From IMG/VR virus record IMGVR_UViG_2563366978_000001: a DNA stretch of 47,048 nucleotides. One strand, written 5' to 3'. Of this stretch, positions 8,501-47,048 are shown piece after piece; the first letter of the stretch is position 1, and every line of letters starts with the position of its first letter. A model generated the notes under the pieces. It did not search any database and was not told where the DNA came from. It saw only the letters and a list, made by a program, of their open reading frames with translations. This DNA is from a virus. Its lineage: Duplodnaviria > Heunggongvirae > Uroviricota > Caudoviricetes. The position numbers and the translations under genes were made by a program.

Positions 8501-9586
8501 TGGATAGACGCAGCGGACATCGTTGAATTTCGATAAGATTTCATAGCCAGTCCGCAGGCCGGTATTCCCTTTTCCTTCTGTGGCTGATTTCCGGTCATTA
8601 TCCAGTGCGCAGGTGATTTTTGCCGCCGGGTACATGTTTACCAGTTGTTCCACAACATGAACCATGTTATTAGCGGATACAGCGACAACCACAGCGTCAA
8701 AGCGTTTATCTTTTTTCGTGGCAAGCCAGATGGATGCACCAGTAGCAAAACCTTCTGTAACAGCGATGTTTTGCGCCCCTTTTAGCTCACCGATAACAAA
8801 GCAGGCACCGACGAAATCGCCGCTGGTTACGGCGCTGGTCTGGTATTTTCCACCTTGTTTGTCGATTCGCTGCCAACCCACAATACGACCATCGTAACGA
8901 CCGTCCAGGTGAGCCAGAGGGATAGCCATATACGTGGTTGGCCCCCTGCTCCATTTTGCGCTGTCGTGACTGGTCACGCGACGCACATCACACGAATTAA
9001 AAACGTCACGAATACCTTTTTTAATCGCATATGGCCATGAGCCGTCTTCTGCAGGAGCATGTTCCCACGCGCTGTGGAATGCCAGCCATCCCAGCAAACG
9101 TTCATGGTCCATTTGGTTGTTTTTCAGGTCATTAATTCGTTTTTGTTCTTCACGGCGACGACGTGCTTCGGCCTGACGTTCTATTCTTGCCCGTTCTTCT
9201 TCCGGTTGTGCGACCACGGTCGCATTATTCCGTTGTTGCTCACGGCGATATTCAGAAAACAGGAAGGAGAAACCGCTCCATGAGCCAGCATCGCTGCCTT
9301 TATGGACGAAGTTAATGAACGGGTAATCAATCCCTTTGCTGTGTTCCAGCCGGGAGTAAATTTCTACGCGTCCTTTGAGGCTCTTTTCGAGAGCTTCTGG
9401 AGATGTTTTATTGTATGAAGAGTAACGCTCAACACCCCCGCGAGGGTTGAGTTGGATGTTGTCGGAACAGGCAGACCAGTTGATACCAGCCATCTGTGCC
9501 AGCTCGGTTAGTTCATCCCGTGCTGCTTCAATTAGCGAGAACGGATCGCTGCCAAAGCGATCCGCATAGAAATCGTTTAATGTCAT
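5591..9586 (-). CDS. repA: Replication protein RepA (primase-helicase), 1331 aa
   Basis: Single ORF of N15 RepA size (about 1324 aa from memory) in the N15 position between immunity region and telN side. Confidence 0.9.
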   Translation of the reverse strand: MTLNDFYADRFGSDPFSLIEAARDELTELAQMAGINWSACSDNIQLNPRGGVERYSSYNKTSPEALEKSLKGRVEIYSRLEHSKGIDYPFINFVHKGSDAGSWSGFSFLFSEYRREQQRNNATVVAQPEEERARIERQAEARRRREEQKRINDLKNNQMDHERLLGWLAFHSAWEHAPAEDGSWPYAIKKGIRDVFNSCDVRRVTSHDSAKWSRGPTTYMAIPLAHLDGRYDGRIVGWQRIDKQGGKYQTSAVTSGDFVGACFVIGELKGAQNIAVTEGFATGASIWLATKKDKRFDAVVVAVSANNMVHVVEQLVNMYPAAKITCALDNDRKSATEGKGNTGLRTGYEILSKFNDVRCVYPTFEDDPQMECSDFNDLHKLRGLRETARQLFATANRLKTGTDLLSLTLNRLKTIKRDNRRTFAKELLRAVDIGMLTCPVPNSPSDLFNMFCIVLREMGLENIYRATVKDHIARRLNKKCRIAQAPRSFSERITDPNKRPQHITYKRLETSVMTDDVLKYVQSLQGIVIVRAGMGSGKSTGLLRPLMHSSERGISVAHRVSLIGGLWEMMTEGKGVKTDILHYQDPGYQEMAPYASKLTICINSIVKNCWQPLMRQHDYFGFDEATQGLRAVLSGRAMENPVAVFNTLIDALARTEQHPIMVDADANDLLVDLAELAMKRREELGLPAWLQIHVIELPVDVRNRETGEPIRVFYTEKDRIMTEVVKAVSDGEKIMLATDSSTFAEDVTATLRMHFPGKKFLCVNQKNKPEPEVEAFTNQPKKMVKKYDGLIYSPSISSGVSIEQKHFDRHFGMFCGEVVPSDAVQMLRRDRTAKEFIIGFDKARAKRETDPQKIERAFAQALLATAGMNGELTDVVFDGDRISMGVANTDFTRMKIKAAAIEATARNDYASNMICIMHSDGYKVSPLATDYAANDIGKDLRKEARDIVWEQTLDLHLNTETPQESEREELLKKRALTLEEQAKLVRWDIENELKLPVEEGTLKFYFDGARDKVRRYETMLLDEVTARRYDREEAAINFTYTYRQAGQWQYFVVTAMTREQADDVFKTKFPGIIDHKVKATPTVEVGARGFYALKSATLRQYFIDCGINPETMTGEATQERLKFARDNLMTAERRDLLNNVLHIGGFMTPKGKPKVPEALFKNICDSLGLKTGKRRGRDGDKRPTLRFVEPESAAFMLDILVQRQKDGLTLKTRKAEKTAIEMDRDLDLNIYMDDKTRSTNEQVQNAPHSVISEALAVLPVAVPESWAMSALSSEELATMSSWSSASIAMTFASLYLTEFMDHLSSNELRRLREYITGNSSCSYEEQGAFYG
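5873..5922. other. Candidate replication origin inside the 3' part of repA: 8-bp inverted repeat GGATCGCG/CGCGATCC around an AT-rich core with three GATC sites
   Basis: Direct reading; N15-type origins are reported within the 3' part of repA (from memory). Confidence 0.3.
9209..9224. repeat. sopC-like palindrome TGCGACCACGGTCGCA (inside repA); putative centromere site
   Basis: 16-bp core of the palindrome family repeated five times in the window. Confidence 0.55.
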
Positions 9587-11445: not shown

Positions 11446-11694
11446 GTTATGTTCAGGAAACCGTCGAAGCCAGAATTAAGGTATTCGGGGGTAAGAAATG
11501 AATATGTTATCTGGTGTCCAACTTGTGGTTACAGGACACGACCAGATAGTAATAAGCAGTCTGTAATTGCCGATTGGTATTTATCAAATCAGCCAGGTAA
11601 TAAGCATATAGAAAATCTTTGGATTAAGCGTTACTTGGAAATCAGAGAGGGTGCGACCGTGGTCGCACAAGAAAATGAAAATAACGCCATTTAA
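11446..11694 (+). CDS. Small Cys-containing protein (CPTCGY motif), about 82 aa
   Basis: In-frame ATG after the upstream stop; contains one centromere-like palindrome at its 3' end. Confidence 0.45.
   Translation, partial: VMFRKPSKPELRYSGVRNEYVIWCPTCGYRTRPDSNKQSVIADWYLSNQPGNKHIENLWIKRYLEIREGATVVAQENENNAI
11651..11668. repeat. sopC-like palindrome GTGCGACCGTGGTCGCAC; putative centromere site
   Basis: 18-bp palindrome, 8-bp arms with 2-bp centre. Confidence 0.65.
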
Positions 11695-17001: not shown

Positions 17002-17023
17002 CTGTGCGACCACGGTCGCACAG
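17002..17023. repeat. sopC-like palindrome CTGTGCGACCACGGTCGCACAG; putative centromere site
   Basis: 22-bp palindrome just upstream of the candidate late promoter region. Confidence 0.65.
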
Positions 17024-20042: not shown

Positions 20043-20062
20043 TGTGCGACCGTGGTCGCACA
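20043..20062. repeat. sopC-like palindrome TGTGCGACCGTGGTCGCACA; putative centromere site
   Basis: 20-bp palindrome. Confidence 0.65.
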
Positions 20063-20262: not shown

Positions 20263-20282
20263 CGTGCGACCGTGGTCGCACG
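20263..20282. repeat. sopC-like palindrome CGTGCGACCGTGGTCGCACG; putative centromere site
   Basis: 20-bp palindrome. Confidence 0.65.
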
Positions 20283-44436: not shown

Positions 44437-45426
44437 TTAGTTATTTTTTACATCGGAAGAATTTCCAAACGCCTCCTCAAGAATAGATTCAATTTTACTC
44501 ATTAGGTGCGATGGTATTTTTCTGTTATCTAATTTTAATGTTGTGAAATTTTTCCCATATTTCGCCACAACACCGTCTCCATATTTCTTTTCCCTTTTCT
44601 CTCCATGTGAATTGTTTTTCTCAACAATAATGAAATCATGAAGAGCCTGTATTATTCTTTGCGCATCTAAACTTTCACCTGATTTTTTCATCCTCAGCAA
44701 CTGAGATGCAGCATTTTTCATGGCTGCTTCCTGTCCCTGATATGCTTTAAAAAGAGCGTCTCCTGCTCTGGCTGATAACTCACCAGGATGGTTAAATATT
44801 GCCAATATATCTTTAGGTAAACCGGCTGTATTAATACATCGGCTGATAATATTTCTATCCACGCCTTCGGCTTCAGCTAAAGATTTTACGTTACCGTCAA
44901 ATTCATGGAGCCTTCGCAGGTATCTTTTCCCCCTTTCATAGGCGCTGATAGGTCTATAGTCGTTGCCTATCTGCGATAACCATTGCATTTGTTCATCATC
45001 TAAATCGCCAATAAGAACACGATAATCGCATCCAGTTATAATGGCTGCTTTACGTCTTCGAGAACCATCAGCTACTTCAACAATACCTGACACTTTTCTT
45101 GCGAAAGCCGGATTTTGTTGCCCAGAAGTTAGAAAAGATGGAATTAAATCAGCTAGAGAAGATTCATTTAATAAATCTTGATCACGCTCATTACCTAGCC
45201 ATACCATTGTTGCCATTTCTACTTTATCTGCGGGGATCGTTTCTAACTTAAAGTTAACATTACGTCCGCATACTGGCAAAGTTATGCTATTACCGGTTAA
45301 TGAACTCAGTTGACGTTTTAAATCACCAACCATAGGTGATACCGGCTGATGTTCAGGTGCATGATGATTATTACTCATAATGCGATTAATATCCGGAGCA
45401 TTTTTTAGAAGAGAGCGTTGTTTCAT
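44437..45426 (-). CDS. sopB: Partition protein SopB (ParB family)
   Basis: 329 aa; conserved block ITLPVCGR...SGNERDQ...DGSRRRKAA...GNDYRP as in F SopB. Confidence 0.95.
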   Translation of the reverse strand: MKQRSLLKNAPDINRIMSNNHHAPEHQPVSPMVGDLKRQLSSLTGNSITLPVCGRNVNFKLETIPADKVEMATMVWLGNERDQDLLNESSLADLIPSFLTSGQQNPAFARKVSGIVEVADGSRRRKAAIITGCDYRVLIGDLDDEQMQWLSQIGNDYRPISAYERGKRYLRRLHEFDGNVKSLAEAEGVDRNIISRCINTAGLPKDILAIFNHPGELSARAGDALFKAYQGQEAAMKNAASQLLRMKKSGESLDAQRIIQALHDFIIVEKNNSHGEKREKKYGDGVVAKYGKNFTTLKLDNRKIPSHLMSKIESILEEAFGNSSDVKNN

Positions 45427-46592
45427 TCTTCGTTCTCCCAGCGAGGTTTTATTAGATCATCAAAAATTTCTCGACAAACAGGGTCCCATATAGAGACGGC
45501 ATTTCTCCATGCATTAAGTGTTGAACGCTGGTTTGCCGCTTGTTCAAATACTGTTCGCATTTTTATCTGACCTTTACCTACTTCATCGGTAACGCGTACA
45601 ACCTGACGTAATACCATTGATCCCCATGTATTTCTTATTTGCTCTTCCATCCATCGTGATTGATTTCCTGTAGTGAGACTATATTTAGTCAGAAGCAAGC
45701 GAACGGTCGGCTCAAATCCGCCTAGGTCAACGCTTTCTAGGAGATCGAGAAGCATTGTGAAAAACTGTAGAACAGAGGCGTAATCAAATAATTCTGCAGG
45801 GGTAGCAACAACGATAACGTCAGCTGCGCAAACAACGTTAATGGTTCCTGTACCGAGGTTTGGAGCACTATCTATAACGATAACATCGTAGTTATCCCAA
45901 ACTGATTCTATAGCTGCGCGTAGCATCAGGTGAGGAGGGTGAGGCAATTTACCCTGAGCATGATATTGCATGAGATCTGTTTCTATACGGTGTAAAGCTA
46001 GGCAGCTAGGAATAATGTCCAGTCCAGGCCAGCATGTTGGTTTTATAGCATATTCAGCGTTATCGCGTTCGCCCAAGTAAAATGGCAGTAAAGTATCCTC
46101 GGCATGTATATGTAAATCAGGTACATAACCGTGATACATGGAGGCTGTTCCCTGAGGATCGTTACCTTCAACTAAAAGAACACGATGACCTTGTAATGCT
46201 AGCCATTGTGCCTGATGTACTGCAGACGATGTTTTATAAACGCCGCCTTTGTGTGACATAACAGCAAGCACAACTGGGTTTTTATCTTGTGGCCGTTGGT
46301 TTGGGTTGCCAAAAACAGCTCGCATACTATTGATTTGATCTATGGTATAACCGGCACGACGTTCAACTCTTCCTCTCATTTCAAAGTCAGGTGCAGGTAA
46401 ACGCCCGTTCTTCTCAGCATCTCTTATTGCTTGAGGAGTTACACCAATTAAATCTGCTACTTCAGTTATCCCCCATCTACGCGTGATACGCCGAGCTTCA
46501 GGACTATCATCACCGAATTGAGCTATAGCAATTGCTTGGGTCATTTCTTGACCGCGCGTAACACAATCTTGTAATAACTTTTTCAAAGACAT
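45423..46592 (-). CDS. sopA: Partition ATPase SopA (ParA family)
   Basis: 389 aa; Walker A KGGVYKTS and long blocks identical to F SopA. Confidence 0.95.
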   Translation of the reverse strand: MSLKKLLQDCVTRGQEMTQAIAIAQFGDDSPEARRITRRWGITEVADLIGVTPQAIRDAEKNGRLPAPDFEMRGRVERRAGYTIDQINSMRAVFGNPNQRPQDKNPVVLAVMSHKGGVYKTSSAVHQAQWLALQGHRVLLVEGNDPQGTASMYHGYVPDLHIHAEDTLLPFYLGERDNAEYAIKPTCWPGLDIIPSCLALHRIETDLMQYHAQGKLPHPPHLMLRAAIESVWDNYDVIVIDSAPNLGTGTINVVCAADVIVVATPAELFDYASVLQFFTMLLDLLESVDLGGFEPTVRLLLTKYSLTTGNQSRWMEEQIRNTWGSMVLRQVVRVTDEVGKGQIKMRTVFEQAANQRSTLNAWRNAVSIWDPVCREIFDDLIKPRWENEE

Positions 46593-46613
46593 ACTGTCAT
46601 CTCCAGCTTATAA

Positions 46614-46691
46614 CTTTGCTTAATAATTATTGCTTTGCATATTTCTAGCAAATTGACATAGAAAAAGCAAAGTAAAACAAAAAAGGCAAAG
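46614..46691. promoter_or_regulatory. sopAB promoter/operator: CTTTGC hexamers at 46614-46619 and 46633-46638, inverted GCAAAG at 46667-46672 and 46686-46691
   Basis: Direct reading; F SopA autoregulates through CTTTGC repeats (from memory). Confidence 0.5.
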
Positions 46692-46882
46692 ACGAAGATT
46701 TGAGCAAAATCATCTTTTGTTTTATCCCTTAAATGCAAAAAAAAACAACGACAGGCTCATAACAAATTGATAATAAAGGATTTTTTAAAAGAAAGGAAAT
46801 CGTATAAAACTAGTGAAACATGATGAAAATCATCAATGAGATACGTTTCCTCTATTTATTCTCCTAATCCTCACCAACAAAA

Positions 46883-47022
46883 GAACACAATCAAAGATCG
46901 TAAAACAACAATAATAATTCACACAAAATAAAGAACACAAATACAGAAAACAACAACACAATAAAAACAAGAGAACACAAGCTATAAATATTACACCAAT
47001 AGAGAACACTAATCAAGAACAT
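46883..47022. repeat. Right telomere-proximal repeat array: AGAACAC at 46883, 46933, 46973, 47003, and AGAACAT at 47016
   Basis: Direct reading; spacing shortens toward the end (50, 40, 30, 13 bp). Confidence 0.65.
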
Positions 47023-47048
47023 ATCAGCACATAATTCCCCATTATACG
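47022..47048. other. Half of the telomere resolution palindrome (telO/telRL-like): TATCAGCACATAATTCCCCATTATACG
   Basis: Matches the N15 telRL half-site TATCAGCACACAATTGCCCATTATACGC as I remember it with 2 mismatches; the window ends one base short of the predicted symmetry centre. Confidence 0.8.

Follow-up and report, generated by a model that had tools for sequence, protein, structure and literature searches.

The AT-rich DNA between the sopA gene and the right end of IMG/VR record IMGVR_UViG_2563366978_000001, a Caudoviricetes sequence of 47,048 nucleotides that was analyzed over its whole length and is referred to here as the window, raises the question of whether SopA binds just upstream of its own gene to repress the partition operon. 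The first-pass annotation had described two direct and two inverted copies of the hexamer CTTTGC/GCAAAG within 100 bp of the sopA start, and an exact search indeed recovered all four copies inside positions 46611 to 46692. The answer depends on the replicon that carries them, on the SopA protein that would bind them, and on their arrangement and conservation.

Over its right 2.6 kb, the window shares 99.8% identity with the end of Escherichia phage PhiR46_1, a phage of E. coli ECOR13 whose record (PV340565) is annotated with the genes ParB and ParA and with its last 22 bp as a telR site. The right end of the window (47020 to 47048) finishes in TATCAGCACATAATTCCCCATTATACG, coinciding with this telR site, and we take this end, which resembles half of the N15 telRL palindrome, to be a telomere half-site. 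The window seems to stop exactly at the hairpin telomere of a linear prophage. A matching half-site was not found at the start of the left end (positions 1 to 148), ahead of a gene starting at 149 that is presumably the protelomerase gene telN, given the resemblance of its product to N15 TelN. The window contains five perfect 16-bp palindromes, TGCGACC(AC/GT)GGTCGCA, spread across about 11 kb at 9209 to 9224, 11652 to 11667, 17005 to 17020, 20045 to 20060, and 20265 to 20280. A sopC-type pattern has six matches in the window, one of them a weak match with three mismatches that lies outside the five palindromes, and none of 100 shuffles reached six. The five palindromes match the core of the N15 centromere repeats IR2 to IR4 (oligonucleotide table, PMC7205306); N15 itself has four dispersed centromere sites, compared to five here. 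Judging from its gene content and ends, the element is a linear phage-plasmid of the N15 type in prophage orientation. About 450 bp separate sopA from the hairpin telomere, and the predicted Sop system is complete, comprising sopA, sopB, and five N15-type centromere palindromes.

Two further observations concern the ends of the replicon. The motif AGAACAC(A/T)A is present in four exact copies on the plus strand at 46882, 46932, 46972, and 47003 (to 47011), all within about 170 bp of the right telomere, and near the left end on the minus strand in one exact copy (51 to 59) and one copy with a mismatch (26 to 34). Although its count over the whole window is at chance level, exact copies occur only at the two ends, inverted with respect to each other, and the motif may flank the telomere-resolution site as a repeat. 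In addition, the sopA promoter and gene are present twice, in inverted orientation and about 0.8 kb apart or more, in some public contigs, i.e., L002/L037 (IMGVR_UViG_2724679539_000001), L025/L027 (IMGVR_UViG_2791355284_000001, 92,470 bp), and plasmid record NZ_CP019258.1. One of these two-copy contigs is about twice the phage length, and the duplications look like assembly read-through across a hairpin telomere, giving head-to-head copies.

The sopA ORF (45423 to 46592, minus strand) encodes a 389-residue type Ia partition ATPase with an N-terminal winged helix-turn-helix (wHTH) region, the presumed repressor. It is preceded by a ribosome-binding site, GGAG, read from the sequence at 46601 to 46604 (minus strand), 8 nt before the ATG, and its stop codon is overlapped by sopB (44437 to 45426, minus strand), which encodes a ParB-family centromere-binding protein and presumed co-repressor, as in F. 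SopA scored 734.2 bits against the NCBIfam SopA equivalog model NF010259 (cutoff, 725), and SopB scored 405.5 bits against NF010252 (cutoff, 274). The window SopA shares 74% identity with F SopA and 93% with the SopA encoded by phage N15 (a 46,375-bp contig, locus L031). The alignment with F is gapless over residues 1 to 100, so the protein has a cognate N-terminal wHTH domain of about 100 residues homologous to that of F SopA. Within the wHTH region as defined for F (residues 40 to 100), the window SopA matches F at 42 of 61 residues and N15 at 57 of 61, and the stretch QAIRDAEK (residues 54 to 61) is invariant in all five SopA sequences compared. The Walker A and A′ motifs are identical to those of F, and E60, R75, and K340 are kept. 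This pattern of conservation fits an unchanged DNA specificity.

Read on the sopA (minus) strand, the four perfect hexamers occur in the order direct, direct, inverted, inverted. The direct copies, GCAAAG on the plus strand, are site 1 (46686 to 46691, −99 to −94 relative to the sopA ATG) and site 2 (46667 to 46672, −80 to −75), 13 bp apart. The inverted copies, which read CTTTGC on the plus strand, are site 2′ (46633 to 46638, −46 to −41) and site 4 (46614 to 46619, −27 to −22). A fifth hexamer, site 3, was missing from the first-pass set: ATTTGC, with a single mismatch at position 1, lies at 46648 to 46653 (minus strand, −61 to −56), exactly 13 bp past the second direct copy. The locus therefore has four exact copies and one single-mismatch copy, spanning −99 to −22 immediately upstream of the sopA-sopB operon, with spacers of 13, 13, 9, and 13 bp between successive sites. 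Three direct copies at 13-bp intervals, the third being ATTTGC, are followed by inverted copies that form two overlapping pairs, site 2 with site 2′ and site 3 with site 4, each separated by exactly 28 bp, and the former is the perfect pair. A candidate sixth site, TTTTGC at −117, was rejected: its distance to site 1 is 18 bp instead of 19 bp, and the L005 subclass does not keep it. At 46673 to 46724 we also saw a perfect inverted repeat with 10-bp arms, TAAAACAAAA / TTTTGTTTTA, separated by 32 bp. This repeat is located just upstream of site 1 and overlaps it, encloses a second small inverted repeat (AAGAT...ATCTT), and is likewise not kept in the L005 subclass.

The hexamer had been taken to be the one bound by SopA in F, and the F sequence (NC_002483) bears this out, with CTTTGC at −100, −81, and −62 (motifs 1, 2, and 3) and GCAAAG at −28 (motif 4). 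On this promoter, F SopA (ParA_F) was placed on the CTTTGC motifs by DNase I footprints and binding assays (Boudsocq et al. 2021, PMC8465637), a study that cites earlier operator work by Mori et al. (1989) and Komai et al. (2011). ParA_F protects about 87 bp of a promoter region that is 73% AT, from motif 1 to motif 4, and by surface plasmon resonance three dimers of the apo or ADP form bind per promoter, i.e., six monomers per DNA (PMC8465637). The perfect inverted pair formed by motifs 3 and 4, with its 28-bp spacer, is the primary site and nucleates cooperative loading, a degenerate motif 2′ pairs with motif 2, and binding is lost when all 6 bp of motif 3 or motif 4 are mutated (PMC8465637). 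The window shares with F the hexamer, the 13-bp direct spacers, the 28-bp spacer to an inverted partner, and the AT-rich setting upstream of sopA-sopB, and the direct copies and site 4 agree in position within 1 bp of ATG offset (−99, −80, −61, −46, and −27 in the window against −100, −81, −62, −48, and −28 in F). The two differ in which copies are perfect: in F, motifs 3 and 4 are perfect and motif 2′ is degenerate (GCAAGA at −48, with a 27-bp spacer), whereas in the window sites 2′ and 4 are perfect and site 3 is ATTTGC. The offsets from site 3 to site 2′ and from site 2′ to site 4 are 15 and 19 bp in the window but 14 and 20 bp in F. The replicons differ as well, the window being a linear phage-plasmid with dispersed centromeres and F having a tandem sopC.

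A second close comparison is with N15, in which the sop operon likewise adjoins the hairpin telomere, the TGCGACCNNGGTCGCA centromeres are dispersed, and the five-position layout has identical 15- and 19-bp offsets. Similar operator sites in the N15 sop promoter were reportedly noted by Ravin and Lane in 1999. In N15 the three direct copies are perfect and both inverted ones are degenerate (GTAAAG at 28 bp from site 2, and ACAAAG), and the window shows the reverse emphasis. The array lies 6 bp nearer the ATG in the window than in N15, and the N15 spacer and flanking DNA could not be aligned to the window by BLAST, with 26 of 48 spacer columns identical. The sequence of the N15 sop promoter was compared in Fig. 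5C of PMC8465637, where N15, phiKO2, and pLVPK share the F motif spacing. That study analyzed 16 sequences, and its BLASTN search found no close relative of the N15 promoter; the lineage of the window is thus absent from its set. More distantly, in the parAB systems of P1 and P7 a ParA with an N-terminal wHTH region represses its own operon, as would be expected of the window SopA, and the operators are inverted hexamer pairs with 26- to 29-bp spacers that overlap the promoter (PMC8465637). The hexamers themselves differ, being TTATGC in P1 and ACGTGC in P7, and the P1/P7-type ParA structure 3EZ9 is a distant phmmer match to the window SopA (E = 5e-22).

Conservation could not be assessed by DNA search, since BLASTN of the promoter region against phages gave only PhiR46_1 as a match extending past the sopA coding start. 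Loci were retrieved by protein anchoring, and the sopA upstream regions of 40 viral loci, 60 genome loci, pO157, and plasmid F were aligned. Counting a promoter as having the five-site layout if it scored at least 25 of 30 on the hexamer positions, we found 67 distinct sopA promoters of this kind in N15-like phages and in F, pLVPK-like, and other enterobacterial plasmids. They separate into two spacing classes, with offsets of 15/19 bp (phage-plasmid type, 31 promoters) and 14/20 bp (F/pLVPK type, 36 promoters). Identity to the window is 25 to 30 of 30 hexamer columns (83 to 100%) and 22 to 35 of 48 spacer columns (46 to 73%), and the hexamers appear to be under purifying selection relative to the spacers. 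Site 1 reads CTTTGC in 65 of the 67 promoters. Across 335 sites, motif positions 3 and 4 show little or no variation; position 1, the one altered in site 3 of the window, is among the two least conserved (1.0 bit). Because of this weaker conservation, and because ATTTGC or GTTTGC is also present at site 2 in other lineages, ATTTGC at site 3 is a plausible, probably weaker site. All five sites are perfect in loci L019 and L023, in which both inverted pairs are therefore perfect, compared to sites 2 and 2′ in the window, sites 3 and 4 in F, and neither pair in N15.

Two groups of loci in the collection deserve separate mention. In L039/L056 (Enterobacteriaceae bacterium LSJC7, 47,902-bp contig), SopA is 71% identical and the operator layout is different: CTTTGC is found at −121 and −64 and GCAAAG at −29, with a 29-bp spacer from the −64 copy, along with an extra CTTTTC...GAAAAG pair, such that a pair of the site 3-site 4 type is kept while the upstream sites are rearranged. 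F-type sopA loci were also present in assemblies labeled Alicyclobacillus, Aeromicrobium, Chryseobacterium, Streptomyces, Mycolicibacter, Geobacteraceae, Oscillibacter, and others (L047, L060, L067, L068, L070, L074, L094, L096, L097, L101, and L102), some with promoters identical to that of F. The likeliest explanation for these is contamination by F-derived (BAC or fosmid) vector or enterobacterial plasmid DNA rather than true hosts.

The conserved five positions also bear on the description of the set as symmetric, which stands only as arithmetic. The four perfect copies are indeed mirrored about a center near −60.5, −99 to −94 matching −27 to −22 and −80 to −75 matching −46 to −41, with the inner pair 28 bp and the outer pair 66 bp apart. 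They could in principle form a truly symmetric nested palindrome bound by SopA as two symmetric units or four monomers, ATTTGC having no role, in keeping with the older Mori/Komai model of four independent monomers for F as PMC8465637 describes it. We consider this unlikely, given that the symmetry arises automatically from equal 19-bp periods and that the relatives keep five positions: L019 and L023 are perfect at the three direct and both inverted sites, F, N15, and L019 have CTTTGC at the third, and ATTTGC is kept at exactly that position throughout the window's lineage, in all 10 of its distinct promoters. Moreover, ParA_F is a dimer with a 6:1 monomer-to-DNA stoichiometry, and a 66-bp spacer exceeds the span of about 10 nm between the two wHTH regions of the dimer (PMC8465637). 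The layout is thus an interleaved five-site array of three direct and two inverted copies rather than a two-plus-two set.

A promoter for sopAB is predicted at 46623 to 46651 (minus strand), with TTGCTA (46646 to 46651) as the −35 element, a 17-bp spacer, and AATTAT (46623 to 46628) as the −10 element. It is the best-scoring sigma-70 candidate on the sopA strand in a custom weight-matrix scan, although a weak one, matching the consensus at four of six positions in each element, and it is identical in the diverged L005 subclass. A standard promoter and terminator scan of 46400 to 47048 returned none on the sopA strand, this candidate falling below its threshold. The predicted −35 overlaps site 3 and the predicted −10 lies between sites 2′ and 4, which would give a topology as in F, and both candidate elements are about 6 bp further downstream than the probable TTGCTT/TTTAAT of F. 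TTGACA at 46653 to 46658 (plus strand) was considered as part of a divergent promoter and rejected, as no acceptable −10 is found at 16 to 18 bp. An Rfam scan of 46300 to 47048 gave noise only (E values of 0.28 and 0.71, far below gathering scores).

The same DNA is spanned by a 51-residue ORF with a TTG start (46583 to 46738, minus strand), annotated in PhiR46_1 (PV340565) as the CDS of a hypothetical protein. In two close relatives the ORF is disrupted, by an internal stop codon in L005 and by a frameshift in L008, and it is therefore probably a false gene call. It is very unlikely that the hexamers simply belong to this ORF or that they are bound mainly by SopB, TelN, a host factor such as IHF, or a phage repressor, even though the array lies about 360 bp from the hairpin telomere. 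The same array is found on circular F-type plasmids without a telomere, the SopB-type sites of the window lie elsewhere, in the 16-bp palindromes, and ParB_F does not bind the F promoter specifically (PMC8465637). Least of all can the cluster be a functionless chance by-product of AT/T-rich intergenic DNA beside the telomere: the region is 71 to 74% AT (74% over 46611 to 46692) and the hexamer is not overrepresented in the window as a whole (38 copies against 39.1 expected), but any other 78-bp span of the window holds at most two copies, and of 400 first-order Markov simulations of the whole window only one reached four copies in 78 bp, while of 20,000 with local intergenic composition (29% GC) none did, so that their clustering is not due to chance, and a chance origin is effectively refuted by the recurrence of the same positions relative to the sopA ATG in 67 distinct promoters, in which the hexamers are conserved and the spacers diverged.

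In its position, hexamers, spacing, conservation, and cognate SopA, the feature has the sequence-level properties of an F/N15-type SopA operator. By analogy with F, the sopAB partition operon of this N15-like linear phage-plasmid very probably has its operator at 46614 to 46691, where SopA would bind and repress. The suggestion in the first-pass annotation that sopA autoregulation is conserved is likewise well supported by homology, through the site layout shared with F and N15, the 67 promoters, the SopA equivalog score, and the invariant QAIRDAEK. The promoter position is predicted from the consensus match, and binding, stoichiometry, loading order, and repression are those that we infer from F; the three-dimer model was derived from in vitro work and modeling of F only. 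Following that model, a SopA dimer, apo or ADP-bound, would contact an inverted pair with its two wHTH regions, along one face of bent AT-rich DNA. The first dimer would probably land on the perfect pair formed by sites 2 and 2′, and two further dimers would load cooperatively, one on sites 3 and 4, with their single mismatch, and one on site 1 with one wing. The three dimers would cover about 85 bp, including the promoter, and so repress sopAB. SopB, helped by the centromere sites, would act as co-repressor; in F, ParB_F raises the affinity of ParA_F (PMC8465637). Because site 3 is imperfect here and binding in F needs motifs 3 and 4 intact, the relative binding strengths and the loading order given above are tentative for this lineage.

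An operator of this type is already well studied, and its presence here is an ordinary, expected feature, the only local twist being which inverted pair is perfect. Beyond annotation it has little consequence: it marks the unannotated sopAB operator and likely promoter of a PhiR46_1-like telomere phage. The 67 promoters add natural variants to the 16 sequences of the 2021 F-plasmid study, and the lineages with a perfect site 2′ mildly strengthen the model of three overlapping SopA dimers. More tentatively, with the odds slightly against it, the nucleating perfect 28-bp pair may have moved in the window's lineage (10 distinct promoters) from sites 3 and 4, as in F, to sites 2 and 2′, with the core promoter shifted by a few base pairs. 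If so, this move would amount to a natural "swap" experiment, with site 2′, which is degenerate and inferred in F, shown to be genuinely recognized by SopA, and the overlapping three-dimer model would gain independent support. The repression set-point of this low-copy linear prophage might also differ as a result.
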